From Vermamoeba vermiformis (lineage: Eukaryota), in assembly GCA_045837725.1 (NCBI GenBank), contig JBEWZL010000282.1, forward strand, positions 62,001-126,000: a stretch of 64,000 nt of DNA, in the 5' to 3' direction. The translations under genes and the position numbers were made by a program. This document shows positions 20,047 through 49,017 of the stretch, piece by piece. The notes beneath the pieces were generated by a model, which ran no database searches, was not told the origin of the DNA, and was given only the letters and a program-made list of their open reading frames with translations. The stretch's first letter is position 1; the number at the start of each line of letters is the position of its first letter.

Positions 20047-20277
20047 TCGAAATAAAATCTTTTGTCTCGATCGAGGAGATAGATAGATGCTGGATGTAGG
20101 TTGCAAAGGATTGAAAGGCTAAGAAAACGATTGCTCACGGATCTATTTGGCTTTTAATATGCACGCGTCCATTAAGATGAGGTTACATGAGGCGTGTAAC
20201 AATAAAAATGGAAAGAAAAAATTGCGACGCGATATCGCTAAAAAAGGCGAGATTCGCTGAAGCTACTTAATAGTTGT

Positions 20278-21971
20278 TTATTTCAGGGAGAAGTTATAAA
20301 TATGCTTGAAGGCATGCACAACTTCGGTCGCGACTGTACCTTGCAACGCAAGACGAGCAAGTTGAGTGAATGGTTTCAAACTAAGCACATCCTCGTCTCC
20401 GTTGAGATCTCTTATCGTGAGCGACTTCAATCTCGTGAGCATTGTAACGCATTGCCAGAATCCTTTTGATTTAGCTGACGACAAATCAAGAGACTGAAGA
20501 TCCGTCATTTTAGCTAATCCGCTCATGTCGAAATCTTCGTTGGTATGGATACCCAAATTGGTTAATCTCGTTAATGAGTCTAATCCGTTAATGCAATAGG
20601 GTGCCTCTACTGTAATACGTAACTTTAACTGCTCCAAGTTCGTCAAATCCGCTAACTTTATCATGTTCAGATCCGCTTTGTTATCCAGTGTTAAATCTTT
20701 TAACTTCGTTAAATGACTTATATATTCAGCACTTGGGTATTTTGAGTACAGTGACTGCAGCATCGTCAAATTAGTCAAATGAGTCAACCAATTCAAGTTC
20801 CATCCATCGTTGATTGCAACGCTCTCTAGCATTGTTAAACGTGAAATGGCGGATGAAATTTCGACTTTTTGCAGTTGATAAGGAAATATGCTTGAGCTTA
20901 GTCGTCATAATGAACGGACACACCAGATCTGCTTTGAATTTTGCGTACTGACCAGAAATGTTTAATTCTTCTAGATCCGTTAACGCTGTCAGAAATTCCA
21001 TTGGCGGAATTAATCTCTCAGTATTGTAGTTGACAGTTAATGAAATTAGTTTTGTCAGGCAGGTCAGCTCGTTTGGTCGAAGGTGTGGATCTGCAAGCTG
21101 CAATTGCGTCAAATTCGTGTTTAAATCCAATCGATCCGCAATTGCTCCTCGAACGTTTAGACTTTCCAAATTTGGTAATAAGCTGTGTGGAAATACTTGT
21201 CTGTCAATCCATAGCAAGTGTTTTAGGCCTGTCAAACGCGTCACCAAGTCAACATCCAACTTCAACGTTCCTCCTGTAGAAAAAGCGACCAATGACGTGA
21301 GTTTTTCAGGGAATTTCAAGTGTTCGAATATCTCCGCGTTATTGTGCCAGAATTCGAAATCGAGACTTTGTAGATTGGTCAATACTGTCAAATGGCTAAG
21401 TACACTATCGTCCACCCCACTTAGCATTGGTTATATTTGGTAAATAAGGCAGTAACGTTCGATATGATAGTTGATATCTATCTTGCACATCGAGGCATTG
21501 CAGGTTGGTTAAGGTTGTTAAAAGGATCCATTGTTCGGAGATCGGCCAATCAACTTCTTTATGGAGAACAGCTAATTTAGTGAGGTTCGTTAATCGACTA
21601 ATAGTGAAAAATTCATCCAATGATCTCGTATTTGATTTGCTCCAAACAGTATTTAATCGTGGATTTTGGAAGGTAATGCCGATCGGATGTGAGTATTTTG
21701 ACATCCTCTCTATAATTGCTGGTATTTGCTCTCTGTTAACATTATAAATTATAAAGTCATCATAATTGATTATTTTGAACCATTCTGTGTTCGTTAGTCG
21801 AGCACAAAATCTTGATCTGTCATCCAAAAAGTCGACAATTAGTTTTTTTAGTTCCGATGGCAATAAATCCTACGAAAATAATTTTTCATTAATATACTGG
21901 CGATTACATTAATTTACGATTAAATATTAAAAGGTAACCACAACAACTTCAAACGAACCGTCTCTTACCAT
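20278..21971 (-). CDS. F-box/LRR protein, copy 2 (two +1 frameshifts; possible pseudogene)
   Basis: ATG|gtaaga intron then DLLPSELKKLIVDFLD F-box. LRRs run across three overlapping ORFs. Confidence 0.75.
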
Positions 21972-22146
21972 GGCAAGTCTTAAATTTAGTTGAAAGCCTG
22001 CAACTATAATTAATTCTGTTACGTTTGAGGTGAGCAAAACGAAAAAAGCTCTCTCCCGCGTTTAGTCAAATTCTGATTTATTTTGGTGATATCGCCAAAT
22101 TTTAGTGAGACTGAGAGGCGAACGGGTTCCGAGATAACAGTATGGT

Positions 22147-23789
22147 TTATATTAATTTGTAAATATGAGTCAAATGTGCCTGAATTTCGGGCAGTACAGG
22201 TACATATGTACGCACAAGGCGAGTTAGCTTCGGCAATTGCTTTAGGCTTAGAGCTCTTGTTTTATCGACTTTATCGTTGATAGTAAGATCTTCCAAGCCG
22301 CTAAGTCTAGTTATTTCATTCCAAAAATCTTTGGTGCGACGAGGTTCGTACAAACACTTCAGATCTGTTTTCGTTACGAGGCCTAAGTCCGTATCTTCAT
22401 TGACTACATATAAATGTGTAAGCCTTGTTAATGCGTCCAAACCAGCGATTCTCGCGTCAACACCAGTTACTAGGACATTCAGATGTAAACGTTCCAGATT
22501 GGTGAGATCCCCTAACGTGAATCCAAGCTTTAACGGTCTCGAATGTTGTATCGAGAGCTTTTTAAGCTTCGTCAGCGTTGATACGAACAAGTGGTCAGTA
22601 CTTTCGTTTTGAAGCAATTGTAGTGACGTCAAGTTGATTAGCTGAGTTAAAAAGTCTGCATTTTTGGTATTCCTAAACTTAGCGCTTTCTACGGTGATTA
22701 ATCGGGAGATATGCTCTGTGATTTCTAAACTCTTTGAGGTCAATATAAGCCGGGTGAGATGCATTGAACCAACGAATGAAGCAAACGCCGTGTCAATGTT
22801 GTTACAGGTAAATGTCAGATCTTCGAGACGTGTCAACGCTGTCAAATATTCCATCGGTTCAATCGCACGATCGCCAGTAAAATCAATAGCTAACGACTTC
22901 AGTTTTGTCAGAGAGGCCAAGTCGGTTAAGGAGGTTGCCGTCGATGTTTGAAATTTCAGTCTTGTCAACTTTGGACTGAATAATCTATCCTCCAATGACA
23001 GTATTTTGGGTCTGCCAGTTTGCACCAAACTTTCTAAATTTGGTAATAAGCTGTGCGGAAATTGCTGGTGACTATTCCAGGACAAACGTTGAAGGCCTGT
23101 TAAACGCGTCACGGCGTCGAGTTCGAGCATAATTGCGCCATACATGTTAACAGCCAATGACGTCAGTTTTCCGGGAAATTTCAGTAATTCGAAGACTTGT
23201 ACATCTAGGGGCTCATGAGAGCCTGCTCGTTGAGTCAACTCCATTTTGAGACTTTGCAAATTCGTCAGACTTGGTAACAATGGTAAGATGTTCCGATAAA
23301 ATCCATCAATCCAAGCCAGGTTAGGCAAGTGCGGCATTAATTCTTGTTGCACTCTACTTCTATCAGGGAAAATATCCAGTCTTTTTAAATTGGTCAAAGT
23401 CGTCAAGCGGATCCAACTTGCAATAGGGAGGTAATAGTCTTGATCAGGGATAATAAACTTCGTTAAGTTCGTCAAACGAGATATTTCAAGCAGTTCTGTG
23501 AATGTGTCTGAAGGGCCAATGTTTTTGAAGTTCGTTTTGGACAAAGTAAGACCGATCGGATGCGTTAATTTTGATAACTTGTCAATAACTTCCGATAATT
23601 GATCTCTCGTCACGAAATTAATATTAAAATTGTTGATTATGATAATCTTTTGCCATTCGGTGCATACTACGCGGCAATTCAGTCTAGATCTGCCATCCAA
23701 AAAATCCAAAATTTGCTTGGTGATTTCCAGCGGCAAAAAATCCTACAAAAATATGCATAAATATCAAAATTAATTAAAATTATGATGAT
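22147..23789 (-). CDS. F-box/LRR protein, copy 3 (intact)
   Basis: ATG|gtaaga intron then DFLPLEITKQILDFLD F-box and a 529-aa LRR ORF. Clear paralogue of copy 2. Confidence 0.9.
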
Positions 23790-33981: not shown

Positions 33982-36268
33982 ATGTCGGGATTGATAAATT
34001 TGCCAACGGAGCTGTTGGACTTGATCGTCAGCTGTGGATTGGACCTACTCGACTTGGGCGCGTTATTCTTGACGTCAAAAGAGTCCAAAATAAAATTCTC
34101 TGATGTAAGACTGCAGCAAATATTCATGGATAATACATCGTACGTACGAGCAAGCATAAAATAACGTTAATAAATTTTTAAAATTATTTTTTCGTTTAGT
34201 ATTCCTTAAGACCCAATAATTGCCTATACCAGACTTTTCAATATATTTTGTAACTGATTTAATTTTAAAAAATAGACTAAGGCTTAGGAGTCCTAAAACC
34301 GGCGCCAACCTCCGTACTAGTTTTGTAGATAGTGTAGCACGAGTACGGCCATTTGAAATGTAGGATAATGATAACATTGTTCGATAGAAATGCATTCATA
34401 GCAATGATCCAACGGGCATTGAAGTTTGCTTCGGAAAAAAGCGGATTTCGTCAGCGATCTCAAGTTTATTTACGACAACTTCGTCGTCTCTATTCTCGGG
34501 TCTTAATCGATTAGACTTTTCGAAGGAAATATTTGATAAAGACGCCGATTTGGTCTTATCCTACGTTATTCAAGTAAGTTTCTTAAAAATAGTTTAGCCG
34601 GATCTGATCTAACGTTCCTTGCAGTATTTTCTCGCTAATATTCCTGAAAGAGCGAATAGAGCCAAAGAAATTATCCCTCTAGTCACTCAATTAGCAGAAA
34701 GCTTTATTCAATTTCAAAAACCGACCTTTGAGAAACATTTGAACGAAGTGCTGGTACACAAAAAGACCTTGTTAGTCGTACTAGATTTCTTCAACAACGA
34801 ATTTGGTATTGTATTTGGCTGGTTGGGCATAGATTCATCTTATCAGATCGGACCGGTAAGTTCATCCTAGTAGACGTTACAACTCCACTCTTAATTTAGC
34901 TCATTTATTTATACTCGCAATCAATACACGTAACTATGACTAAGACATACTGTGCATTTAAGGGCGATATCGCCTTTTTTTCAGGTCATATGACCAGCGC
35001 ATTTTTCCAGTACAAAAATTTGACCTCGTTTGAAACTAGGCCGAAACTCCGCCTGCCAAAGCTATTTTGAGATGTTTCGATAAATACCCGAAATACTCCG
35101 GTAATATGAATCAGGCTTTGGTCGATGTTGGAATGAGCAACAAAAATTTGAAGAGTGGATCCAAGGTACTTTTGAACGCTAATTGTAACTGCTACAATGA
35201 AGTACTTATATGATATGTATACAGGTGACACTTCTCGAGTACACGTGTCTCACCGGATCAATTCGAATGTTCAATATTGCTTTACAACACGGAGCCGAGT
35301 TCGACAAGAGCAAGCCTTACCTTCCTTTGCTATTAGCCGCGAACAAATTAGAAACAATAGAATTCTTGGAACAATTGGTTAAAATGGGCGCTGGTGGGTA
35401 TCATAATATTATTATTGCTATCTGGATACTTAAATATAGTACTATTGTCAGATTTCAACGTACCAATTCCCTCGGCAATTTTCAACGAAGAAATTTATGC
35501 GGCTATTGGAGAATCAACTTCGATTCTAAATTACTTCGCTTGCAAGACAGATGATGATACTAATACGTAAGCTATTAAGATCTATAACTAGGACTAAGTT
35601 TACTTTTTAGCCCCGTGATCGAGTACATTCTTTCGAAGGGCGGAAAATTGCTGCCTCCCGAACTTGAAGCGAATTTAAAAGAAGAACCAAATAGTATTAG
35701 ATATCGTGTAGCTAAAGCTAGTCAAATCGAGAGTTATCATTCATTCAATAGAGCTGTGTAAGAGATCCGTTACAAAACAGAAATTTCAGGACAAACTTTC
35801 TAATTACTTTATATCGACAGTAAATTGGAAATAATGGAAGAAATGCTACAAAATAATAAGGCACTAGTATTTAGCGATGAAAAAGAGGTCATGGTAAAGC
35901 TGAAGATGGATCTGGTCGAAGGTCAAAAACGCTACAAATTCTCTCTTGGTCAGCCGAGCATCTTTAAAGGCTTCTGGCATATCGAAAATAATTTCTTGGT
36001 ATGTAAGGCTGATAGAAAGAAAAGTACCCGGTACATACCCACCAAAACGAGATCCACTCGAATTCTTCAACCTACTTATGCACAAATCGATCAAGTTTTT
36101 AAGTATAGACTCTTTCGGTAAGTCCTAGGAATCTGTATATCAATATATTGAGTGTATTAATAACATTCTACAAAGAACTTGGCTCGATCAGTTGGCGATC
36201 GTACCAGATTGCGACGACAACCTGTCCAAAGAGAAGCTATTCAACAAAATGGTATTATGCAAGCATAA
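33982..36268 (+). CDS. F-box protein with ankyrin-like repeats (multi-exon; 3' structure uncertain)
   Basis: N-terminal LINLPTELLDLI F-box, LLEYTCLTGSIRMFNIALQHGA and VIEYILSKGG ankyrin-like motifs. Confidence 0.6.
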
Positions 36269-36477
36269 ATAAATAAATGTTGTATTATAATATGCATTGT
36301 ATAAATAAAGAAGTTCAGAAACGGAGATACGGAGTGTAAAGAAGCGAGGTGCACTCCTTTCTACATTCGAACGGGCATTTATTGCTCACATAGAGCTACA
36401 ACGAATGACAATATTATTTACAATGCGTAACATATTTATACAAGCAGACACGTGACATGTGATTCTGCTCCGCCTCT

Positions 36478-36494
36478 TCATAGGAGCTTGTAAG
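36478..36494 (+). repeat. Left target-site duplication TCATAGGAGCTTGTAAG
   Basis: Identical to 43763-43779. Flanking bases differ on both sides. Confidence 0.95.
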
Positions 36495-36530
36495 GAAAAA
36501 AATGGGAGGACCACAACTGATTGGAACTAC

Positions 36531-39500
36531 ATGCACAAGCTCAAACTCAATGTAATCGTAAGTACTCTACTAACCCTTATTTTTGTAGGTCTGATCTTTC
36601 TCGAATCTCAACCAATTATTAACGAAAATTTAAATCTAACGAACAAACACCTCAAAAAATCGAATGTTGAATTCCCAAAGCATATTTGCCCAGGGATAAT
36701 TGAATTTCAAACTCTCTCTGTGGAGATGAGATCGAAACCTGAAAATCAAATAAATCGAAATTATCAAAAATACACCTTACTCTATACTTCATTAAAGTAT
36801 AATTATAAAATTACGAATATTAAATCTATTTTTAGACAGACAGGCCAAAAAACCGCAACACGATCTACGCTACTTGATCAAAATTATCGGCAATGGAAGA
36901 TTCAGACGTCATATGTTTTAGATCTTTCGAGAATCTTCTCAGCCGACAAGTATAATTTAAGTAAGAAAGACTCTTTAAATTTTGTAAGTTCAACGACCTT
37001 TAACCACACTATGAATAACAATAACAATCTCAAAGACTTCCTCGACGATGAAAACATGGGAGAAGCCCTGGCTAGCATGTTCCCGATCGATGTGATTGAT
37101 GACTCCATTGAGTCATCCTCGATTGAGGAGAAGTCTGATCGGGTGGAACCGATCAACCAAGAACACGCAGCGAAGAAGCGCAAGCTCGATCAGACCTCCT
37201 TCTTGATAACTGCAAAGGAGACTCGAGCTAACGCACCACCACCAAGAACGACGAAAGCTCCGGTATTTAAACCAAAGGCCAAAGAACCGAAGAACATCAA
37301 AGATCACGTCGAAGAGCAACGAAAACTGAACGACTTCCGAAACAAGCAACGCTCCTATGCTACCTCTTTCCACCGATTCTACGTGCCAACAGACAAGAAG
37401 ATCTACATTGACGTAGAAAAGCCCAATACCAACCAGATATTGAGAGAAGAACCCAACGATGCCGCTACACCCCCAAACCTGTATGATGGCTATTACTGGA
37501 TCGTAGTAGTGGGACTCGACGACAACTGGTCAAAGTCCCAACTCAAGCAAGTGTTTAAAACTACGCCGCAAGAAGTTGTTGCTGGAAGGATTGAGAAGCA
37601 AGGCAGAGACTGGTTCTTTCCCTTCCGTTCCCAAAAGAGTGCCCAACTAGCACGAGACAACGTCTTCGACAAACTGAAGGCAACGCCAATGAAACCTGCC
37701 CCTCTGGTTCGAGTACAACCTACCAAACCACAAGTTGTTAAAGAGGTGCTGATCCGCAAAGTCAAAACAAGAGATGCAGAAGGCGAACTCATCGAACAGA
37801 GCTGGGTTGGAAAACTCCCGATCAAGAGCATTACAATTCGACCGTCAAAAGCCCCAGGCAAAGAAGAGCTGAATAACATTTTCATCGAACTCGACGAACT
37901 CGAAGACCACAATGATATCTTCCTCTATGGTGGCCTCATCAGACTTAACCAGACTGACTACTCCATTGTTCCATGCTTCCCGCGCGAACGGATGCTCCAA
38001 GCATATCGAATTCCCAATGACCCCATGTGGTTGGATCACCAATGGGTGAAAGAGAGATTCGACCTCTTGCTTAATGGCATGTCAATCACAATTACCGAAG
38101 TTTTTGTACCAACGGAAGCAGATGGAAATGTTTCACAAAACGCCCTTGTTCTCTTCGAGACAGCAGAAGATGCACTAAAAGCTACCACACAGTTCTTCGC
38201 TTTCACTTGGGGACCAATGAAAGCCGAGGCGAATATCACGTTCCAATCGCCAATCTGGCAACGAAACAAGGTAAGCATAATTCTAAGCATAACTAATACA
38301 AATACTAACAATCCTATTATAGACCAGAAAGTAGCTCAGTACGAGCACAAATGCTACCAGAGTATAACACTGAAACTCTTTTTAACGAACGCAGACATCA
38401 TTTATATTTTATTACTATATACACACGTTAGACTACATTATATTAAAAACCAAATAAAGACACTACTTCTAGTTACATTATTGCTTCGTGCTTCGTCAAT
38501 TCCAATCCAGCTCGTTCAGTTCTTACATAGAATACCTACAGGCCAACGCAAACAAAGAGTAAGACACAACGCTAAGAAGCAACAATTAATAGATAACCGA
38601 GTGTCCCTTTACATTGATAATAAACTAGTATCAAGGCCAGCCCTATCCAAAATTAACAAAAAAAATGTAACCATATTAATAAAAAACGAACTAAAACTAA
38701 AACCAAACCAATACAGGGTAACCTTCAATAAGTACAATAAAAATATTTTTATTGCACTGAAACTTGTTGGTGGAAACAATCTTCTAAACAAGAAAATATT
38801 AGCCTACTTCGATAATGAATTTTATGAAGGAACAATTATACAAGCAAAAAAGAACTACAAATATACAATTAAATGGGACAATGGTGACGACAACTCTGAT
38901 ATCTACCTTCATCCGTATGACAACACTCATCAGCCACGTCATGATGCGTGGTTCCTTAAAGATGAAGAACCCATAACAATAGAAACTAATGAAATAAAGA
39001 TCGCATTCAAAAACATTAACGGTAAATTCAATGACATGATCTCAGACATCGAAAGTACAATGAGGGCAAACCGACTCGACTTTCTTTGTATCCAAGAACT
39101 GAAACTTAATTCTGAGCAGTACATTGAACCTATCCAAGGATACACAATGATTAAAAACCTAAAACCGCGCTCAATGATAGAGGACGAATATGTAGCACGT
39201 AAAACAGCCGAGATACAAAAACGGACAACTAACGACGATAAAAAGGAACACGACATCAAAATGATACTCAAAGACAAGGCAAAAGATAAAGGGGGAGTGG
39301 CTATCCTCCTCCGAAACTGCTGGGAACCATTTATTCAAGAAGTTATTAAAGACGATATCGAACACCGTTTCATTCATATAAGGCTTCGCATTAATAACAA
39401 TGACATATGGATAACAAACATATATGCACACAGCGACGGTACTATAACTGAAAAAGAAGCTCTTTTCGACAGAGTTTTAGAAATTAATAGCGGTAACCTG

Positions 39501-41975
39501 ATCTCGGAAAATTTGCGTATAATAGGGGGTGACTTCAATTGCATATACGAAAAAAGAGATCGAATCAGCTACAGTAAGAAGAACAAAACATTCGAGGCAG
39601 CTTTACAACCAAGCATAGCAAAAAAATTAGAAACCAACTACTTCATTGACGTATATCGCTCAATGAACCCTTTAAAGAAAGGTTTCACACACTATACTAA
39701 TAACATAAATAACCCATCAATCGATAATATATACCTCAACAAAGCCAGAATAGACTATGTATATATCAACGACGAAAAGATTGACCATGTTATTGATAGC
39801 AAAGTTGAAAAAAAGAATGACTATATAGAATCAGACCATAGACTACTAATAACATCAATTAAATCAATAAATGCGATCTCATTAACAAGTGCACCTACCC
39901 GGCAATTCATCAACACAAGAGAACTTAACCGCGACAAGGTACAACAAGCGGTCAAAGACATAAGTGAGAGTAACGCATCAATTCTGAATATTAGCCTGAA
40001 CGATAACATTAAGAGTATGAATAAGACTCTTAAAAACTGGGCTGCAAAGCTCAGAGCAAAATTCCAAAAAGAAAACAAGCGACGAGAACAAAAGAAAATC
40101 GATAAACGATTGCTCCCGATAAAGAAAGCACTACGGCATATTAATAATATTATTATGCTTCATAATAAAAATGAGAAGTCGCAAGGCTTGTTTACAAGTA
40201 AATTAAATAAGATCCTCAACAAGTTTGATTATGACAACATCAAAATTGAACTCGATTTCAATATATTAAATAATATCAGAAATCGCTTGACTAAGGAACG
40301 TAAAAAGATAATGTGCGTCATCAAGAAAGATGAAATTAATGAACGAATACGGAGAAGGCTACAGATCCGAGACCATAACTTCAGCCAGTACATTCGACTA
40401 ATTTTTGGAAAAGACATGGGTACGGAAATAAACTTCATAAAAGAGAATGATGAAATTCTTACCTCGAAAGAAGATATTAAGCGAGTAATCCAACAATACT
40501 GGGAAAAAATGTTAACCACGAAAACAGGCGCCAACAATGAACCAAAAGCATGGCTCCAAAAAGAAATTGCCATTGAGTATAGCCCAGACCTAATGAGAGA
40601 AATAACATTAGAAGAGTTAAAAGCAACTATTGAGCGAATGAACAACCATAAGTCACCAGGACCGGACAACATCCCGGTGGATCTAATCAAACTCTTCTCA
40701 GATAATGAATTAGGCCAATACGTAACCTTGATGAATAACTGCCTTAGAGATGGAGATATTCCCAATGAGTGGCGAAAAGGTACGATCCGGCTTATTCACA
40801 AAGACGGAAACAGGGGCGAGCCAGGTAACTATCGTCCAATCACTCTCCTGCAAACCACGTACAAAATATTCAGTACTATTATAAGAGATAGATTAACTGA
40901 CTATTGTGAAACAAACAAACTATTTTCTAATTATCAGACAGGATTTCGTAAAAATAAAAGTGCGCACGATAATATTACCATTCTAAAAGCAATAATCGAG
41001 GACAGTAAATTAGGGAAAGAACTGAATATCACCTACCTAGACTTTAAAAAGGCTTACGACAGTGTGGAACATTGGGCAATTCGAGAAGTGTTAGAATACT
41101 ACAAAGTTGATTTGCGATTAGTAAACTTAATCGAAAATATGTACAAAGACAACAAATTAAGAATTAACGTCAATAACGAATTAACGGACGAATTCAATTG
41201 CAATCGAGGGGTAAAACAAGGAGATGGCCTTTCGCCATTAATATTTTTAATCTTCATAAACCCCATCCTAACCTTAATTGAAGAGAAACACAAAGGATAT
41301 GCATTCTATAACAACGAAGAACTTACAATTCCTCTACTGGCCTTCGCAGACGATGTCGCGCTCATCTCTGATAACTTCGAACAAATCAAAGAGATGAATA
41401 AATTAATAGAGCAGTTCTCGTTAACATATGGTATCAAGATTAACCATAACAAGTCAGCGTTCACTAGCAACAACCTACATAACAATACAATTAATTACTA
41501 CGGAAAAAATATTAAATACAATAGACCGGACGAAAGCTATAAGTATCTAGGACTATTTGTTAACCTCAATAATGACGACAGCGAGTCGCAAGCCCATTAC
41601 GTGGCAAAGACTCGTCAAAGACTTAATATAATTAAACGTAAAAAACTCAATATTAATCTCAAAGTGGAACTTGTCAAAAAAGTCATTTATCCGTGCATTC
41701 AATACTTAATGCCAGTAATATTAATTGATAGTGTTAAAGCAAATGAACTAAATGAGGAAATAATGCACATAATAAAATATACAATACCGATCCGCCGCAA
41801 TTCAAATAACGAACAGTTCTACTTACCCCGAGAACTCGGTGGTCTTAACCTCCCACCAATAGCTGATTTAAACAAAAAAATACTATGCAAACACTTCTTT
41901 GAACGGGGCCTTAACGGAGACCAAAAAATACTTACGCAAGTTATTTATTTTAGTCTACTTAAATATATGGTTTAA
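36531..41975 (+). CDS. Retrotransposon polyprotein: hydrophobic leader - RRM-type ORF1 - LKLVGG - Tudor-like - APE endonuclease - reverse transcriptase
   Basis: APE motifs NING, CIQE, GGVAILL, NIYA, GDFN, RIDY and SDH. RT motifs KSPGPD, NYRPITLL, QTGFR, LDFKKAYDSV, GVKQGDGLSP, FADD, YKYLG and LPRELGGL. First in-element in-frame ATG is 36531. Confidence 0.92.
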   Translation: MHKLKLNVIVSTLLTLIFVGLIFLESQPIINENLNLTNKHLKKSNVEFPKHICPGIIEFQTLSVEMRSKPENQINRNYQKYTLLYTSLKYNYKITNIKSIFRQTGQKTATRSTLLDQNYRQWKIQTSYVLDLSRIFSADKYNLSKKDSLNFVSSTTFNHTMNNNNNLKDFLDDENMGEALASMFPIDVIDDSIESSSIEEKSDRVEPINQEHAAKKRKLDQTSFLITAKETRANAPPPRTTKAPVFKPKAKEPKNIKDHVEEQRKLNDFRNKQRSYATSFHRFYVPTDKKIYIDVEKPNTNQILREEPNDAATPPNLYDGYYWIVVVGLDDNWSKSQLKQVFKTTPQEVVAGRIEKQGRDWFFPFRSQKSAQLARDNVFDKLKATPMKPAPLVRVQPTKPQVVKEVLIRKVKTRDAEGELIEQSWVGKLPIKSITIRPSKAPGKEELNNIFIELDELEDHNDIFLYGGLIRLNQTDYSIVPCFPRERMLQAYRIPNDPMWLDHQWVKERFDLLLNGMSITITEVFVPTEADGNVSQNALVLFETAEDALKATTQFFAFTWGPMKAEANITFQSPIWQRNKVSIILSITNTNTNNPIIDQKVAQYEHKCYQSITLKLFLTNADIIYILLLYTHVRLHYIKNQIKTLLLVTLLLRASSIPIQLVQFLHRIPTGQRKQRVRHNAKKQQLIDNRVSLYIDNKLVSRPALSKINKKNVTILIKNELKLKPNQYRVTFNKYNKNIFIALKLVGGNNLLNKKILAYFDNEFYEGTIIQAKKNYKYTIKWDNGDDNSDIYLHPYDNTHQPRHDAWFLKDEEPITIETNEIKIAFKNINGKFNDMISDIESTMRANRLDFLCIQELKLNSEQYIEPIQGYTMIKNLKPRSMIEDEYVARKTAEIQKRTTNDDKKEHDIKMILKDKAKDKGGVAILLRNCWEPFIQEVIKDDIEHRFIHIRLRINNNDIWITNIYAHSDGTITEKEALFDRVLEINSGNLISENLRIIGGDFNCIYEKRDRISYSKKNKTFEAALQPSIAKKLETNYFIDVYRSMNPLKKGFTHYTNNINNPSIDNIYLNKARIDYVYINDEKIDHVIDSKVEKKNDYIESDHRLLITSIKSINAISLTSAPTRQFINTRELNRDKVQQAVKDISESNASILNISLNDNIKSMNKTLKNWAAKLRAKFQKENKRREQKKIDKRLLPIKKALRHINNIIMLHNKNEKSQGLFTSKLNKILNKFDYDNIKIELDFNILNNIRNRLTKERKKIMCVIKKDEINERIRRRLQIRDHNFSQYIRLIFGKDMGTEINFIKENDEILTSKEDIKRVIQQYWEKMLTTKTGANNEPKAWLQKEIAIEYSPDLMREITLEELKATIERMNNHKSPGPDNIPVDLIKLFSDNELGQYVTLMNNCLRDGDIPNEWRKGTIRLIHKDGNRGEPGNYRPITLLQTTYKIFSTIIRDRLTDYCETNKLFSNYQTGFRKNKSAHDNITILKAIIEDSKLGKELNITYLDFKKAYDSVEHWAIREVLEYYKVDLRLVNLIENMYKDNKLRINVNNELTDEFNCNRGVKQGDGLSPLIFLIFINPILTLIEEKHKGYAFYNNEELTIPLLAFADDVALISDNFEQIKEMNKLIEQFSLTYGIKINHNKSAFTSNNLHNNTINYYGKNIKYNRPDESYKYLGLFVNLNNDDSESQAHYVAKTRQRLNIIKRKKLNINLKVELVKKVIYPCIQYLMPVILIDSVKANELNEEIMHIIKYTIPIRRNSNNEQFYLPRELGGLNLPPIADLNKKILCKHFFERGLNGDQKILTQVIYFSLLKYMV
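37011..38334 (+). CDS. Predicted spliced ORF1 protein (37011-38270 + 38323-38334, 423 aa), RRM-like nucleic-acid-binding protein
   Basis: GC-richer block starting at ATG 37011. RRM-like segments WIVVVGLDDNWSKSQLKQVF...WFFPFRSQKSAQLA and ALVLFETAEDALKA. Ends RNK|TRK* if intron 38271-38322 is removed. Confidence 0.55.
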
Positions 41976-43638
41976 TAGTAAGTGGCCTAAAGGAAAAATT
42001 ATCGGAGAATCAATAGAGCATAAAATATTCAACATCGTAAGAGAAAATAATATAGAAATAAAAGATTCGGAGGACGATCCAACAGATCTCGCAAAGTACA
42101 TCCCTAATGTACCACTGGTCGATAAATTGAAACGCATCAATGTACAAAAAACAAGTAACTTAATCTCTAAAACATACGAACAATATGGTAACTGGCTAAT
42201 AGGAATTGTAGAAATTAATAGTCGGGCAAGAGACGAGACTGAGAGAATAACCCTTGATGAATACAATACTATCAAGAATATTTTATGCACTCGTAATACA
42301 ACTATATTCAAAGAACATATCCCAATAGAACGGAAAACAAAAAGAATAATGCTAGAAAACGGACCGATAAAAATTAACGATAGAGTCGCAATATGGACAG
42401 ACGGATCTTATGACAAAAAAACAAATAAGGCCGCCTTTGCTGTGTGGTATAATACAAATCGTTTTATACAGCAAAGAACGAATGACGACCAAAATATCTT
42501 CCAATCCGAATTGGAAGCTATTGAAAAAGCTCTTAAAACATCCCGCGAATTTAATAAGATAATTATATTCACGGACTCACTCAGCGCTATTAATCTAATT
42601 CAACAAATAACGAAAAATAAACTAACAAAAAAACACTTACACGGAAAATACCATCCGATCATTAATCGACTAGCGAAACAACTGAAGCGTCGAGACGTGA
42701 TCTTCGAACACATACCTAGTCATATAAATAAGAAGTTAGCAAAATTAGAGAACGAGAAAGAGCACAGTAAAAAACAGAAATTACTGTCACGATTGAAAGA
42801 GCTAGAAAATAAATACGGCGCAATACTTGCCCATATAATAAACGGAAATGAAACGGTAGATAAACTAGCGGTAGAAGCAAAAGACTTACCACTAAACCGC
42901 AAAAAGCCCAAAGGAATGAAAAGGTTCGTATTTGAAATTGAGGAGATAATAACAACGGCTCCGATCGATGTCCTAATAAAAAATAATCAGACTCAGCACC
43001 ACAAAGAAACTATTAAAAATAAGAAGTCCAAAAAGGACCGAGAAATACATCTAAACCAACAAAAACTAATAGACCATGAATCGTCGCGAGAGGTACTCTC
43101 ACAAAATGATTCTATGGTTAATTTCGTATGGAAACTAAGGAATAAACAACTCAATGGCAAAGCAGAAATGACCCGAAAGATCAGAAAAACAGGAGAGGAT
43201 CGAGATAACCTCCGTTTAAAAGAACTATACCAGGACACTATATGTATATTCTGTAATCACGATAAAGAAAATACGGAACATATTCTGAATTTTTGCCCTG
43301 AATGGGACATAGCCCGTTCCGAGATGCACGAAGAAATTAAAAATTATTTAGGCAATATTAAAGTTAACGATTGGACAGATAGAAAAATAAATGATAACGA
43401 AGAAAAAAAGATATGCTCTTTTGGATACTTTCCAAAGAGCGTACGAATAGAAATTAAAAAACAAATAAAAAATAAAAAATTAATCCACAAAAAATGCTCA
43501 GACCTCTTTTACATTCATATGAAACACCTCCGTATAATTTATCGAGAACGATGTAAAAGATATTTTGAGTACTTACGTGATAAATTCCATGATAATAAAG
43601 AGATCCTCCAGAGGAGCAGATCAAAGGACTATGGCTAA
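41899..43638 (+). CDS. Retrotransposon C-terminal part: RNase H and CCHC zinc finger (+1 frame relative to RT)
   Basis: IWTDGS, ELEAI, IIFTDS, HIPSH and GNETVDKLA (RNase H); CIFC...ENTEHILNFC (finger). Confidence 0.9.
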   Translation: MNGALTETKKYLRKLFILVYLNIWFNSKWPKGKIIGESIEHKIFNIVRENNIEIKDSEDDPTDLAKYIPNVPLVDKLKRINVQKTSNLISKTYEQYGNWLIGIVEINSRARDETERITLDEYNTIKNILCTRNTTIFKEHIPIERKTKRIMLENGPIKINDRVAIWTDGSYDKKTNKAAFAVWYNTNRFIQQRTNDDQNIFQSELEAIEKALKTSREFNKIIIFTDSLSAINLIQQITKNKLTKKHLHGKYHPIINRLAKQLKRRDVIFEHIPSHINKKLAKLENEKEHSKKQKLLSRLKELENKYGAILAHIINGNETVDKLAVEAKDLPLNRKKPKGMKRFVFEIEEIITTAPIDVLIKNNQTQHHKETIKNKKSKKDREIHLNQQKLIDHESSREVLSQNDSMVNFVWKLRNKQLNGKAEMTRKIRKTGEDRDNLRLKELYQDTICIFCNHDKENTEHILNFCPEWDIARSEMHEEIKNYLGNIKVNDWTDRKINDNEEKKICSFGYFPKSVRIEIKKQIKNKKLIHKKCSDLFYIHMKHLRIIYRERCKRYFEYLRDKFHDNKEILQRSRSKDYG

Positions 43639-43762
43639 AAACTGTGACGACTGAGGGAAAAGAGCGTTCGCACATGAATAATACCTCGGAAATGAGGTTG
43701 TCTCTTTTCGACTCTGACTTAACTAACAATTAAGTCAAAAGAAAAAAACTAAACTAAACTAA

Positions 43763-43779
43763 TCATAGGAGCTTGTAAG
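43763..43779 (+). repeat. Right target-site duplication TCATAGGAGCTTGTAAG
   Basis: Identical to 36478-36494 and directly follows the AAAAAAACTAAACTAAACTAA tail. Confidence 0.95.
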
Positions 43780-43854
43780 TTGCGGCGAAATTTTTATGCG
43801 ATTTTGCGTCCGTGGATAACACAAATAAGACAATATTATTGAGTAAATAACAAA

Positions 43855-45373
43855 ATGGATATCGATAGCCCAAGCGAAGGAGTTCCGCTGGAGATGTGGA
43901 ACGCCATCTTGCATTTTTTGGATTGTCAAACCTTAGCCGTGGCTCAGCGCGTTTGCAAAGATTTTTATCATTTGTCTGTACGAGAAGAACATTGGAAAAA
44001 AGAAGCGTTAGCCTTATTCTCATCGGTAATATTAATTTTTTCGATTTTTTTCGAATTGAATAAAATTCCGAATACTGATTTTCTGAAAATAGAATATCAC
44101 GCCTTATTTTACAGAAAAATACAGCTCTAACGCGAGTTGGCGAAAGTTAATTAAAGATATTAAACGTAAGTCGCTTACAAAAGCAGATCGTAGATGCAGC
44201 TTATTCAAAATTTTTACAGAACACGATATGTCCGGTTCCTGGGAGATATATATACGTCTAGACGATCATTTTGACGTATTTACTATTTTTGGTCGCTGGG
44301 AAATCACGAATAACTCGTCCCGCTTTTGCAGCAAAATTCTTCATGGATTTGGCAATGCCCCGTGGGGACCTTTCTCGACAATAGGCTGTAATATAGGCCC
44401 TCATTATTCTCTACTCCATACATATAACGAAGGAGCATATTATTCAAGTAAGCCACCAAAAGAAAAGGTCACGCGACGATCGGATCTGAAAGTAACATTT
44501 CCTTTTTAGGTTACATTGGTACCATTGATGAAGATGCTAAGACTAAGGCTAAAATACTATATGGACCTTATAAAACGAACTGGTAAGGGCTAGTAACTGA
44601 AAAAATATGTCGAAAAAGTTCTGACCGGATCTATTTCCTTATTAGGGAAGACTTAACTGGTTCATTTGTTGCTATAAATACTTCTACGACATTAGACCGC
44701 AAGCAAGTAATCGAAATTTTACGCGAGCGACTCCACAAAGTTAGTAGAACTCGAGATGAAAAATGTACGTCCAAAAATATTCATTACAAATTATTCTAAT
44801 GAACTTTGGTTATTATATAGATGACGAAATATTATCAAAATTAGCAGGAAAATTATTTGAAGTATCATTTACAGCTGATGAAGCCTGTTTGGTATGTCAC
44901 ATCCGAGATCAAATCCATAACTTTCATGAAATTTGCTTTACTTATTATTATTTTTATTATAGAAGGACGACAATATGCCTGAAAAGTTCAAATTTACCTT
45001 TAGATTGAACTACAGCACCAATAAGAAAGGTCTTAAAGGATTCATCGTGACAACGGATCGCGGATTCGTTCCAATGGCGCTAATCAAGTCGTCGTTAGTA
45101 TTAGGTACTATACTAGATAATATGATACAAGTATCGTTTGTTGTTTGGAAAGCACAACATTCTTATACTACAATAACGGCACTGTTCAATTTCGAATTGT
45201 CCGAAAAGCAAGTTGAAATGTCCGAGAACGGCGTTATTACCAAACAAAATATTTGCAATATTATGCTGGATGGTAGCTATGTTTGGAGCGATAATAATGA
45301 CCCGTTAAATTACGGCAAAGTTATCGGACATTCAATCGATGACAAAAGCTCAACAAACAATCGACGAAAATAA
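43855..45373 (+). CDS. F-box protein (multi-exon)
   Basis: VPLEMWNAILHFLDCQTLAVAQRVCKDFYHL..EEHWK F-box. Downstream exons have GT-AG junctions. Confidence 0.8.
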
Positions 45374-45409: not shown

Positions 45410-47013
45410 TTAATAATTATGACGGCGCGTCAGTGTTTTTATTGCGTTATGAACCAATTGAAAAACAGGCTTTGAATCTTCTTGTTGGAATTTCGCTTGT
45501 AAAGTGAATACTTGCTCTAATACCTCCGAATAATCTCTATATTCGTATCCAGGTACTCGTATAAATTTGAAGATTTGGAGCCAGATCTCTAGTGGGAACA
45601 GATCCAGAGATTCGGATCGGCGAGCAAGATTCCAAATCGTAAGTATCATATTCAAGTTTGCTTTATGTTGCTTCCTTCTATTCCTCGTGAGATGTCTTGC
45701 TATTAAGGTACTAACTGAATTTTCTTCGTCAATTTTCGTAGCACTGAACTCGATCTTGTTCAACGCGCTGTCGATCTGGCAGCGCATTAATTCAATCAAA
45801 CTCTCGTGCGATGGTATATCATTGTCTTTAATATTCAGATGCGTTAGTGTGCTATTTTCATAGAGTCCTTCAATAATCTTGCTTAGGCCAAAAGACCGAA
45901 GTTGGTTGTGCGACAGATCCAGATGTAGCAACGTTTTGTTTTTCTTCAATACTTCGCAAAGTGCATATGCCCCGTTAGTTGGAATAGGACATAAGCTCAT
46001 ATTCAAGCTTCGTATTATTTGGTTTGATATTAAGGCTTCTTGAAGTTGTTTTGAAATTTGCGGATCTTCGAACAGATCTGACGCCATGCTGAGCGATGTA
46101 ATTGACTTGTTTGTAGTTATTAATTCTATTAATGAATTCGTGGAATTTCTGTTGAAGCTATTTTTGAGAATATTTAATTCGGTCAATGTTGAATTGCAGC
46201 TTTAATCCTTCGACCAGTGCGACACATCCGTCTTCAGACTTGTATCCACTTTCAACTAATTCTAATATTCGTAATGTGCTATTTATCTTGAGCATGTCGC
46301 CTATACTCTTCCAAGCGTCGTATTCAAGCGTGTTGTAACTCAGATCGAGTTTCGTAATGGATGTGTTTTTCGTCAAAGCGTTGCATAATCGAATACATCC
46401 TTCATTTTCTATTTGGTTGCCTTGTAATATTAACGTGGTCAATGTCCTATTGTGATTCTCTATAACTTCGCTGATAAAACTAAGTCCTTTGTCTTCGATC
46501 GAGCTGCCATCCAAAAAATTCAGTATTTTTATCGTCTTATTGACTTTAATTAATTCCGCGAAATATTTGCATGAATTAGGCTTGACGCTGCCTAGAGCCA
46601 GCTCGGTAATCGATTGATTTTCTTTCAATGTTTCGGCTAGCAAAAAACACCATTCTTTGCGAAACATGAACTCTATATATAATGTCTTGACTATAGTACT
46701 GTTCCTTATAGTATTGCAAGCAAAGCACCAATCATCCGTCGACAACGAACCAAGATCTCGTGGACCAAGGTAAATAAAATCTGTTGCAAGACCTTCTGGC
46801 CGTCGCTCTTTAATTAATTTAGCTAATTCACTCGTGTAAGATGGTATATTCTAACGAAATAATGATTAATGACGGATCCAAAAATTTTGATTTTTTTCGA
46901 TCTCAAATAATTCCCTTAATTTAATTCGAACTCATATTAATAAAATACTGTTGCAATTGGTATCCATAGTATATGGTAATTGTTAATATAATATTTACCT
47001 CAGTGTTGGACAT
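45410..47013 (-). CDS. RNI-like (NLRC3-type) LRR protein with C-terminal F-box-like motif; +1 frameshift near 46200
   Basis: NxTLxxLxLxxN 28-aa repeats in ORFs 46158-46745 and 45410-46186, and LDLFPLEIWLQIFKFI near the C-terminus. Confidence 0.8.
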
Positions 47014-47258
47014 TTTGTTCAGATATTTTTCTCCATCCAATTCCATTATCGGTCTTAAACTTGAGTTCGAGGTTACCAAGCAGCATTATTATAGTGTAAT
47101 CTTTTTTACACTAGTGTGGTTGTGCTGTTATTGCAGACGCGAGAACAAAAAAAATCGTCTCGGTCGAAAATCAAGCTGACTGCGACACCATTAACTTAAA
47201 AGACATTTTATGTTTTTTTTGACACTTTTAATGACACTTTAGACATGCGAGTAAAATT

Positions 47259-49017
47259 TTATTCGAATACAACATCAGCGTGGATCCTGTTCTTCCTCAA
47301 GAAATTGAACCAAGACTTGTGCTTTTGAAACGTCATTAAGCTGCTGAAAATGCCTTTAAAGTAAACAGATTTCAGTTGTGGCATTGATTTCAAGAAACTT
47401 TTGATTTCTTCCTCGACGTCGGATCCGACCACTGGCGTTACGTCGCACAACGTGACTCGCTCCAAATTGCTTAATTTCGTTAAATAAGGCATTATATTTT
47501 CATTGGTTGAATTTGACTCTTCTAATGAAAGTTCTCTGATTGTTAGTGGCAAATTGCAATTTTCTTTGATCAGCTCCGTTATGAAGGATCCGTGTAACGA
47601 CAATGACTGTAGGTTTGTCAATTTCAATAAAGCTCGTATATTCTCGTTTGTATAATCGATGCTGCCAACTGACAATTTCTTCAGTTGTTCCGCGTTTGGT
47701 GGCAAAATGAAACTTCCTCGGATCTTGAACGTTGTAAGGTTCGGAAAATTGCTTAGGAATGCTTCTGAGACATTTGAGAGGTATCTAAGTGATAAGTACT
47801 TGACTTGCGGCATTTTGAATGTCAAATCGACTGTTTTGGATTTAAAATAGGTGCCTATCTCCAGCTGCGTCAGATGTTGGAAATTTTGTAGCGAATTAAT
47901 TTCTTCGAATTCTGCGTCGAATAACTTCAGTGCTTCGAGTTGCGTTAATTGAGACATCTCCATAACATAACCGTTGCTATTAATCTGCAATCTTTTCAGT
48001 TTTGTAAATAGATCGAACATGGGTCTTTGAGGAACGCCTTTCGGGATCTGTACAATGCAGCGCAAGTCCGTTAAGTGCTTAAAAGCTGTAATATATTCTA
48101 CTAAGAACGGACTGCAATTTATGAACAAAGACCGCAAGCCAGTCAATCTTGTAAATTGGCCAAATGAGTCCCTACAAGCAGTGGATCCGTTAGTATTGTT
48201 TTGAACTCAGTCATAAATGTTATTCTATGCCATTGAACGTACTCGTCTGCCCACTTGCATTCAGGAATCGATAATTTTCGGAGATTAGTAAGGTACCCGA
48301 TCGCCGCTACAAAAACTAGATCAGCCAAAAAGGTCATATAGAAGAGCTTATACTTACGTAAAATCATCGCAGTAGAATTAATATCAAATCTCAGTTCTTC
48401 AAGAGCGGTCAAGTACTGCACATATTGAGATAAATCTTGGGTAAAAGAGACTGGCGTCAAAAAAAATTAGTCATGATCGTTAAAATCATATTCGTTACCA
48501 TTATTATAGCATAATCTCTTTAATGACGAAAATCGAGTCAAAATGCTCGGCTTCAAGTCGAATCCAACGATAGGGTATTGGGGAAAAACGAGTTCTCGAA
48601 GCCAACCTCCAGTATTGCGAAAATCTCTGCACACTAAATAATATAAGCAACATAACAATATTGGGCGTGGTCAATACCTTCATTAAAGTGTATTTTGACC
48701 GACAAAGTGCATCTCTGATAAATCTCCGTTTGAAGCTCGACAGGAAGGTCCAAAAAATACTCAACTACCATAAATGATACGTAAGTAAAATATTAACTAT
48801 TATATAGATGAAATTAATTTTATTGAATTTTTCTGCGTTAAGATCAGATCGTCGACCTGTCTGAATCAGATTCGCCTCTCAGTTGCCTCGTATAATAATA
48901 TAACTTACATTTTTCGTTGAACAGGGCGTCATCTTCATCGTCCTCCGTTTTACGGTGCTTATTTGGCTGGTCCTTCTCTTCGTCGAGCTTTCTCTTGCGG
49001 GAACTTCGCGTCTGCAT
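47259..49017 (-). CDS. F-box/LRR-type protein (multi-exon)
   Basis: Basic N-terminus RKRKLDE, LVCRDF F-box-like segment and LRRs in ORF 47259-48146. Confidence 0.7.

Follow-up and report, generated by a model that had tools for sequence, protein, structure and literature searches.

How can an intron persist inside a LINE, and what might its removal do? Introns are expected to be lost when retrotransposition proceeds via a spliced mRNA, and splicing of human L1 transcripts is regarded as a dead end. The question is raised by an element in the window analysed here, a stretch of DNA of 64,000 nucleotides (64 kb), for which an initial annotation had proposed a single intron at the end of ORF1: its splicing would release a free ORF1 protein, and its retention would read through into the endonuclease and reverse transcriptase (APE-RT). 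The novelty of the locus is that two host-type introns flank the ORF1 of a LINE, and both are spliced in assembled RNA. A scheme that combines this splicing with retention of the introns in a second RNA form is, by a modest preponderance, the best explanation overall.

Element boundaries and classification

The features of the locus are presented in Table 1. The element is its own sole blastn match against the 64-kb window and has no LTRs, and tblastn with five of its protein parts finds no second copy there; the databases searched likewise contain no relative near enough for a comparison of the introns. Since its k-mer depth in DNA run X2 (519-578) is near that of the single-copy flanks (422-557), the element is taken to be present once. 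The hallmarks of a LINE were found, namely an APE domain N-terminal to the RT, an RT of LINE type, a target-site duplication (TSD) and a short-repeat tail, with no LTRs. RNase H and a weak zf-RVT match are also present, yet these are not decisive for the clade (L1, Tad1, I, R1, others). Taken as a whole, the locus is probably best explained as a young full-length APE-type LINE with one continuous frame in its unspliced RNA, which comprises the 5' region, ORF1, the linker, a Tudor-like stretch, the APE domain and the RT.

The present copy may be defective, given the frame break upstream of RNase H. DNA run X2 shows no indel at that position, and a third intron was discarded as the cause of the break (41872-41975), no donor-like GT being found by eye in the permitted interval. 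An Rfam scan of positions 35500-44500 at E up to 1 returned no small-RNA gene at the insertion site.

Table 1. Coordinates of the features of the element within the 64-kb window.
Feature	Position	Strand	Description
TSD, left copy	36478-36494	.	17 bp, identical to 43763-43779; longest string common to both flanks
Element, full-length APE-type non-LTR retrotransposon	36495-43762	+	7,268 bp, TSD-bounded, no terminal repeats; APE, RT, RNase H and zf-RVT domains
5' region	36495-36983	+	No stop in the polyprotein frame, which has ATGs at 36531 and 36726; 3' end is exon 1 of the spliced RNA
Intron 1	36984-37035	+	52 nt, GTAAGT...AAG; holds ATG 37011; spliced in X4 record 10
ORF1 exon	37036-38270	+	Coding from ATG 37056; GC 0.48 against 0.32-0.35 around; strong codon-frame signal
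Intron 2	38271-38322	+	52 nt; GTAAGC donor, TACTAAC at 38303-38309, TATAG 3' end; AAG codon ends at 38270
ORF1 tail after splicing	38323-38334	+	Three codons and TAG (stop 38332-38334); X4 record 12 continues to 38393
AT-rich linker	38323-38756	+	144 codons, open only in the polyprotein frame, without in-frame ATG
ORF2 conserved N-terminal part	38757-39011	+	Relatives P0003, P0007, P0002 and P0004 align from here
APE endonuclease domain	39012-39773	+	PF03372, E=3.3e-6, residues 852-1105 of the long ORF; L1 endonuclease structures, E ~1e-6
Reverse transcriptase domain	40794-41555	+	PF00078, E=1.3e-38; R2 and LINE-1 ORF2p structures, E 1e-44 to 1e-26
Antisense introns	40848-41036, 41099-41326	-	189 nt and 228 nt; antisense RNA over the RT region
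Frame break between RT and RNase H	41872-41975	+	Frame 0 ends at 41973-41975; frame +1 open from 41872
RNase H	42382-42732	+	PF00075, E=3.6e-13; in +1 frame ORF 41899-43638
zf-RVT-like	43105-43299	+	PF13966, E=0.0018, under the cut-off; in +1 frame ORF 41899-43638
3' untranslated region	43639-43762	+	Short AAACT-type repeats at its end
TSD, right copy	43763-43779	.	17 bp, perfect match to the left copy

Introns flanking ORF1

The intron of the initial annotation (intron 2) is present in the sequence as it had been described, with donor, TACTAAC, 3' end and length all in agreement. It had been called host-sized, and its length and signals do match those of the putative host introns of the window, which measure 48-70 nt and carry GTAAG and CTRAY, with a cluster at 50-69 nt of 19 observed against approximately 8.5 in shuffles. 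The host is an AT-rich eukaryote, and one of its LON-domain exons finds its best matches, at just 37% identity, in eukaryotes of scattered affiliation. The strict pattern GTAAG..TACTAAC..YAG occurs twice in the window, both strands counted, against 0.06 expected, and one of 100 shuffles reached two. Because a looser host-type pattern is expected by chance within the 7-kb element, however, sequence alone is only suggestive of an intron, and the openness of the 17 codons of intron 2 is by itself insignificant (P ~0.23).

The removal of the intron was observed in X4, an assembled run from a near-identical strain, whose RNA label is a guess and in whose contigs rare forms are lost and the ends of RNAs are not visible. 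X4 behaves as RNA: its depth varies between 0 and 1541 over the window, it holds four canonical splice joints (two per strand), and ORF2 lacks sense coverage in it. In contig record 12 (891 nt, depth 18.2), positions 38268/70 are followed directly by 38321/23, so that exactly 52 nt with GT..AG ends are skipped at the junction proposed for verification (38270/38323). Intron 2 is hence confirmed as real and removed in assembled RNA, as seen in the contigs of one run with a guessed RNA label. Among the contigs of DNA run X2, none carries the joint, and there is no intron-less DNA form in that run.

The claim of a single intron was borne out for intron 2, but a second one of the same length, intron 1, is also spliced in X4, where contig record 10 (461 nt, depth 12.1) passes from 36983 directly to 37036, the skipped piece having GT..AG ends; this joint, too, is found in none of the contigs of X2. 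The GC-rich ORF1 exon lies between the two introns, its borders coinciding with theirs to the base. Both are spliceosomal by their GT..AG ends, branch-point motif, host-like length and removal in assembled RNA. The expectation that the intron persists through transposition agrees with the genomic copy, an insertion flanked by a perfect 17-bp TSD, which retains both introns.

Transcripts of the element

X4 contains no assembled sense form other than the spliced one, which has a depth of 12-19.6. This is also the depth of the contigs over the ORF1 exon, which show 5 substitutions across the listed pieces; exons 1 and 3 in X4 consist of element sequence, and for them no differences are listed. 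The contig that holds the first joint starts at 36896, within the 5' region, and no sense-strand contig lies on the element past 38393. Sense contigs ending by that position fit a short ORF1-only RNA, although the end of an RNA is not provable from contigs. Neither unspliced sense RNA nor sense RNA of ORF2 occurs in the X4 contigs or in the reads of runs X16 and X18.

X16 and X18 are raw RNA-seq of organism A, of which approximately 1.85 billion letters were read each, yielding 13 and 15 reads, respectively, all partly on the element. Given that the reads are so few and partial, the element is silent or absent in these runs. A diverged paralogue in organism A is represented by 4 reads of X18 and, sharing the variant at 38264 with them, 5 reads of X16. 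The 4 X18 reads lack the intron, their exon end being followed at once by the three codons and stop seen in the element, which is the sole hint that the junction is conserved between copies.

Antisense RNA over the RT region is spliced as well. The two antisense joints are in X4 contig record 13 (depth 5.1) and read CT..AC on the plus strand, the introns being GTAGGT...GCAG and GTAAGT...TGTAG on the minus strand.

ORF1 exon and 5' region

Doubly spliced, ORF1 encodes 408 amino acids from ATG 37056. The predicted truncation of ORF1 by splicing is found in the spliced sequence, in which the stop follows three codons beyond the second junction. A free ORF1 product is therefore encoded by the spliced RNA, as anticipated, yet with 408 rather than 423 residues and a start at 37056, because the ATG assumed previously (37011) sits inside intron 1, which is spliced in X4.

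The label ORF1 denotes position in the element alone, without homologue or domain. No relatives were found among proteins of 222-709 aa, and a search of 1.84 billion representatives returned none for the ORF1 part, all 59 matches being located in query residues 583-1200 (the ORF2 part). No Pfam family is matched even at E up to 10, and thus no RRM, CCHC, coiled-coil or Transposase_22; PDB sequences yield 0 matches; and the 66 pattern stretches obtained from a metagenome scan with the ORF1 query include 0 relatives. The AF2 model of ORF1 is unusable (mean pLDDT 35), and its predicted beta-alpha-beta-beta-alpha pattern would be a mere hint of an RRM.

Upstream of intron 1, frame 0 of the 5' region contains no stop over 162 codons, with a probability of being open of approximately 4e-6. 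Once stops are disregarded, this region shows no codon-usage preference for frame 0.

Polyprotein frame and ORF2

Frame 0 is free of stops from 36456 to 41972, and this range includes intron 1, ORF1, intron 2 and the linker; the claim that intron 2 is stop-free in the polyprotein frame is hence confirmed. Frame 0 of the linker is free of stops, whereas the other frames contain 23 and 10, P(open) being ~8e-6 to 1e-5. With stops ignored, its codon log-odds are -0.4 in frame 0 against -17.9 and -12.3, which amounts to 12-17 nats in favour of frame 0.

A Tudor-like stretch lies at approximately 38790-38888 (Tudor_3, E=0.008, under the Pfam cut-off). The invariant columns N86 and G89 of the APE domain correspond to an N..G motif at 39012 and 39021. 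Past intron 2, the frame has its first Met at 39036, downstream of this motif, and there is no in-frame AUG between the intron and the motif. A metagenome scan with ORF2 alignment A1 returned three loci, of which L002 and L003 are weak (21-35% identity), and L001 was rejected as a relative, being a contig of prokaryotic origin that carries a gene for exonuclease III.

No protease domain was found in the Pfam search, the linker included, and no 2A (NPGP) motif was noticed on reading the polyprotein translation. Given the lack of both, a fusion of ORF1 and ORF2 would act uncleaved or be cut by host enzymes. A ubiquitin-like cleavage module ending in G-G before the conserved part of ORF2 was considered and rejected: it has no Pfam or Atlas match, and the predicted model is all-beta (mean pLDDT 56), without the helix expected of a beta-grasp fold. 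A similar G-G-like motif is present in relative P0003 at the same alignment position.

Proposed mechanism and alternative explanations

At the RNA level, the first half of a copia-like logic is observed, in that the spliced RNA encodes the ORF1 protein alone. For the second half, the layout of the reading frame suggests that the unspliced RNA would be the template of an ORF1-APE-RT fusion. After splicing, the ORF2 frame is open from 38075 and overlaps the end of ORF1; a -1 frameshift in the spliced RNA was rejected, as no slippery heptamer X XXY YYZ occurs in the stretch that takes in this overlap (38000-38334). With no AUG that ORF2 could use and no frameshift site in the overlap, endonuclease and RT would be made only from unspliced RNA, as a fusion translated through the retained introns. 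If so, splicing would create two classes of transcript, a plentiful message for ORF1 alone and a rare RNA serving as polyprotein message and template, and the excess of ORF1 protein would be set by splicing, as it is in Ty1/copia elements with a short GAG RNA. Because the transposed copy keeps both introns, the form copied into new insertions would be the unspliced RNA, and the introns would be preserved by the preference of the RT for the mRNA that encodes it (cis-preference). That obligatory intron retention has evolved in an APE-type LINE, with the rare unspliced RNA as the sole source of the fusion and the sole copied template, such that the introns persist, is a tentative reading that we hold at slightly under even chances.

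Splicing might instead be incidental, or damage imposed by the host as at the cryptic sites of human L1, in which case the element would be a single-ORF polyprotein LINE and its spliced RNAs dead ends. This is unlikely, given that the introns coincide exactly with the edges of the ORF1 exon and with the step in GC content, that the TACTAAC of intron 2 is perfect and the strict pattern is restricted to two places in the window, that the product is a complete ORF with its stop three codons after the junction and no junction downstream, and that the spliced RNA is the sole sense form assembled, at the depth given above. Human L1, however, is spliced at functional sites to the detriment of its retrotransposition, as the authors of that work conclude (PMC5860796), and the antisense RNA over the RT region of the present element is also spliced at canonical sites, which suggests the host spliceosome acts on element transcripts without obvious purpose. 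Alternatively, the ORF1 block could be a separate module acquired by the LINE, such as a host exon captured or transduced along with pieces of the neighbouring introns. It would then be expressed as a normal short mRNA, the frame that reads through would be secondary, and the RT would be made otherwise. This would suit the GC content and codon signal of the exon, which are unlike the rest, the lack of similarity of ORF1 to known LINE ORF1 or any other protein, and the end of X4 sense contigs by 38393. We consider it improbable, as the exon lies within a TSD-bounded element, exons 1 and 3 of the X4 RNA are element sequence, tblastn detects no host paralogue of ORF1 in the window, and frame 0 is open on both sides for 162 and 144 codons, which would be needless for a passive passenger.

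Termination-reinitiation of ORF2 is reported for human L1. A comparable process here would translate ORF2 from spliced full-length RNA after the ORF1 stop, and the retained-intron fusion would never be made. It would leave unexplained why the introns, the unconserved linker of 144 codons and the 5' region of 162 codons share a single open frame and why the transposed copy retains both introns, and no spliced RNA reaching ORF2 is assembled in X4; hence, although the overlap of the spliced ORF2 frame with the end of ORF1 suits coupling and the missing AUG of ORF2 would be tolerable under AUG-independent initiation, we judge it very unlikely.

Comparison with known systems

The closest analogue of the splicing and retention scheme is the short-GAG (shGAG) strategy of Ty1/copia elements, which is also that of Drosophila copia. 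In copia, splicing is coupled to premature termination. The likeness consists of one long frame in the unspliced RNA and a short spliced RNA for the first protein. Plant elements such as EVD have this arrangement, in which the short RNA serves the structural protein and is proposed to raise its amount above that of the catalytic proteins (PMC5580714). Those are LTR elements whose protease cleaves the polyprotein, whereas the present one is a non-LTR LINE of TPRT type with no protease. Moreover, one intron removes the protease region there, while two introns bracket the first gene here, and termination of the short RNA is suggested here by contig ends. With no LTRs and no protease domain in Pfam, the element does not belong to the copia group, although it may operate in a similar way.

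Human LINE-1 is likewise an APE-type LINE with a working donor and acceptor in its 5'UTR/ORF1 region. Its splicing, including that which produces SpIREs, is described as inhibiting retrotransposition and giving non-functional ORF1p variants and spliced genomic copies (PMC5860796). In contrast, the spliced RNA here is a complete ORF1 message, and run X2 contains no spliced DNA copy. Penelope-like elements (PLEs) keep spliceosomal introns, which is 'highly unusual among retroelements', and have an intron near the 5' end that overlaps the choice of start codon (PMC8557442). The present element resembles them in genomic copies that retain introns after transposition and in the bearing of a 5' intron on the choice of start, but PLEs encode a GIY-YIG endonuclease and a telomerase-like RT rather than an APE and a LINE RT.

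Among non-LTR elements, TART has antisense RNAs with several introns of 53-104 nt and one of 489 nt, and transcripts of Tad, a LINE-like element of Neurospora, are reported with introns (PMC1636488). TART resembles the present element in its spliced antisense transcripts; the difference is that the TART introns lie on the antisense strand and play no part in coding. The intron of Tad may be a closer precedent; it was reportedly described by Sewell and Kinsey in 1996. Ribosome-skipping 2A peptides occur in APE-type non-LTR elements (PMC3708506). They too separate products encoded in one frame, by translational recoding rather than by splicing, and no NPGP was noticed here. In the literature covered, which lies largely outside subscription journals and supplements, no LINE was found in which an intron between ORF1 and ORF2 is used in this way.

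Implications

For annotation, the locus calls for caution: gene finders would take the ORF1 exon as a host gene and the remainder as a separate RT gene. If the scheme is true, the 17 residues encoded by intron 2 would be a marker peptide that distinguishes the fusion from free ORF1 protein, and the element would offer a natural test system for cis-preference, as its RT would be encoded only in intron-bearing RNA. It would represent a second independent origin of the strategy of making a structural protein by splicing and the enzyme by read-through, which is documented so far for LTR elements. It would thus be convergent with copia in an element that uses TPRT, and the first LINE with an ORF1:ORF2 ratio set by the spliceosome.

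Architecture and age of the element

The element is a full-length, recently inserted APE-type non-LTR retrotransposon, as indicated by the perfect direct repeat bounding a 7,268-bp unit, the short AAACT-type repeats at its 3' end, the APE and RT domains of its long reading frame, and the absence of internal or terminal repeats. Against solved structures, the RT part matched R2 and LINE-1 ORF2p (E from 1e-44 to 1e-26), and the endonuclease part matched the L1 endonuclease. In X2, the DNA run from the source sample, k-mer depth is equal for the element (519-578) and its single-copy flank (422-557), and hence the element is single copy in that genome. No relative or domain is detectable for ORF1, which is named by position.

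Coordinates of the element, its parts and neighbouring features
Feature	Coordinates	Details
Direct repeat	36478-36494, 43763-43779	17 bp
Long reading frame	36459-41975	1,838 codons; contains intron 2; Exo_endo_phos (APE), RVT_1
5' region	36495-36983	162 codons stop-free in polyprotein frame; in-frame ATGs 36531, 36726
Intron-like string	36558-36588	31 nt; GTAAGT, TACTAAC 36568-36574, TAG
Intron 1	36984-37035	52 nt; GTAAGT...AAG
ORF1 exon	37036-38270	ends in AAG
Intron 2	38271-38322	52 nt; GTAAGC, TACTAAC 38303-38309, TATAG
Linker	38323-38756	AT-rich
Stop after splicing	38332-38334	TAG, ending the next four codons
G-G motif	38769-38774	beginning of conserved ORF2 part
Tudor-like match	38790-38888	E 0.008, under cut-off
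Frame break	41872-41975	A6 run inside
+1 frame ORF	41899-43638	RNase H; weak zf-RVT match
Candidate host intron	6647-6702	56 nt; neighbour candidate 6502-6559
Antisense contig (X4)	40725-41327, minus	canonical introns 40848-41036, 41099-41326
Antisense open frame	40229-40795	188 codons; no Pfam match
Upstream flank	36335-36480	146 nt
F-box/leucine-rich-repeat ORF clusters	18260-23742, 45410-48206, minus

A frame break separates the RT from the RNase H/zinc-finger part; no intron was found there by eye, and no indel polymorphism was seen in X2. A distant relative, P0004, is encoded on an 18.8-kb contig by an ORF of 1,178 aa that stops at roughly the corresponding position. The break may therefore not be damage but a trait of the family, with a separate ORF or recoding. 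At the other end of ORF2, a motif similar to the G-G motif is present in the relative P0003, and the weak match downstream of it marks a candidate Tudor-like module ahead of the endonuclease, which could be a targeting domain.

Splicing of two introns

The initial annotation proposed intron 2 as a switch between a free ORF1p and an RT polyprotein, and its coordinates and signals were all found as described. On both strands, the 64 kb contain two instances of the strict pattern (GTAAG donor, TACTAAC, YAG) against 0.06 expected, a count reached in 1 of 100 shuffles. A looser pattern picks out putative host introns that carry GTAAG donors and CTRAY branch motifs; their lengths concentrate at 50-69 nt, with 19 found where 20 block shuffles give about 8.5. 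Taken by itself, the sequence is suggestive of a real intron 2. The sole other GTAAGC...TACTAAC...YAG string in the window is likely a host intron. The 31-nt string in the 5' region is unsupported as an intron, since the putative host introns are longer and X4 does not cover the place.

Four public runs were mapped on 36300-44000: X2; X16 and X18, raw RNA-seq labelled as the source species (organism A; about 1.85 billion letters read each); and X4, an assembled run from a near-identical strain (organism B, 37% of sampled words). The RNA label of X4 ("RNA?") is the tool's guess; we take the run to be RNA because its depth varies from 0 to 1541 along the stretch, it contains four canonical splice joints (two per strand), and it has no sense coverage of ORF2.

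In one X4 contig (record 12; 891 nt, depth 18.2), 38268/70 is followed directly by 38321/23, and the 52 nt left out have GT..AG ends. The contig has four substitutions on its 818-nt part and none on its 73-nt part. X2 presents no joint of any kind across 36300-44000. These runs give the decisive evidence that intron 2 is real and is spliced in assembled RNA. A second contig (record 10; 461 nt, depth 12.1) lacks intron 1, which had been overlooked. Two spliced introns, not one, are therefore confirmed, on the basis of a single assembled run whose RNA label is a guess, and of one genomic copy. X16 and X18, with 13 and 15 partially matching reads on the element, are uninformative for splicing of this copy.

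The spliced product

The proposed 423-aa ORF1p does end at the predicted stop, but its start, ATG 37011, sits inside intron 1; with both introns removed, ORF1 runs from ATG 37056 and has 408 aa. At 0.48, the GC content of the ORF1 exon exceeds that of ORF2 (0.35), the 5' region and the linker (0.32 each) and the two introns (0.33 and 0.25), and the edges of the GC-rich block are the two introns, exact to the base. The X4 sense contigs span 36896-38393 and nothing further, with bin means consistent with a contig ending at 38393. This suggests a short RNA carrying ORF1 alone, contigs being unable to reveal RNA ends.

Nine organism A reads (five from X16, four from X18) match about 30 nt at the ORF1 exon end, with one substitution (38264 A>T). 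The four X18 reads pass from the exon end directly to the three codons and the stop that follow intron 2, with no intron between, and then into unlike sequence; such a continuation is absent from the five X16 reads. This looks like a diverged paralogue sharing the exon junction, yet the source could instead be an intron-less gene, as DNA for the putative paralogue was not seen. The reads are a small hint of junction conservation.

Access to ORF2

Over 36456-41972, stops are absent from the frame at position mod 3 = 0 and present throughout both other frames. Intron 2 is accordingly stop-free in the polyprotein frame, as annotated, although its 17 codons by themselves are not significant (0.23). 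The unconserved linker would stay open by chance with a probability of order 1e-5, and the 5' region with one of about 4e-6. When stops are disregarded, a codon model trained on ORF2 still favours the polyprotein frame in the linker, by 12-17 nats, but finds no such preference in the 5' region. The openness of the 5' region may reflect selection only to keep stops out downstream of an early AUG in the full-length RNA.

Similarity to the nearest relatives (27-30% identity for P0004 and P0003, 23-24% for P0007 and P0002) starts at about 38757 and takes in 39012 and 39021, where the endonuclease residues are invariant. The first in-frame Met past intron 2, at 39036, lies behind these residues, so no AUG-initiated ORF2 could be complete. 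Nor does the overlap of the ORF1 and ORF2 frames in spliced RNA contain an X XXY YYZ heptamer. The linker has no protease, and no 2A motif was seen on reading the polyprotein translation. The genomic copy, itself a transposed copy, still has both introns in place, and its template RNA was therefore unspliced; X2 contains no intron-less form. Unspliced sense RNA of the element was not seen among X4 contigs or X16 and X18 reads. Given the open frame, an ORF2 lacking a usable AUG, the missing heptamer and the kept introns, read-through of retained introns would be the simplest source of endonuclease and RT. The same four points make it reasonable that cis-preference would keep the introns in place. 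The proposed switch is thus partly supported: splicing that closes ORF1 at the predicted stop is seen in X4, and the retention half is inferred from these points.

Antisense RNA and surroundings

X4 also contains a spliced antisense contig over the RT region, and the antisense open frame appears to mirror the coding strand. In the upstream flank, X2 depth is about twice that of the surroundings, X4 depth reaches 1541, and contigs of both runs take a different course past 36480. Elsewhere there must be another copy of the stretch, one that is highly expressed. It matched no Rfam family. In the F-box/leucine-rich-repeat clusters, at the two junctions read (near 19050 and 20800), each ORF overlaps its neighbour in another frame and an intron signal is lacking in between, which suggests frameshifted pseudogenes of an expanded family.

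Comparison with known systems

Human L1 RNA is spliced, but the authors of that work concluded that splicing acts against retrotransposition and makes the spliced copies dead ends (PMC5860796). Penelope-like elements keep introns, for which they were termed "highly unusual among retroelements" (PMC8557442). Introns are listed for transcripts of L1, Tad, kangaroo-1, Penelope and Athena, and multiple antisense introns for TART (PMC1636488). A LINE with introns bracketing ORF1, or parting ORF1 from ORF2, was not found in the literature searched, which covered few subscription journals. The closest working analogue is the strategy described for Ty1/copia, where alternative splicing coupled to premature termination yields a short RNA dedicated to GAG (PMC5580714), although the element, having neither LTRs nor a protease, is not a member of that family. 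It appears, then, that a LINE uses a copia-like splicing switch, and we lean slightly towards the full mechanism.
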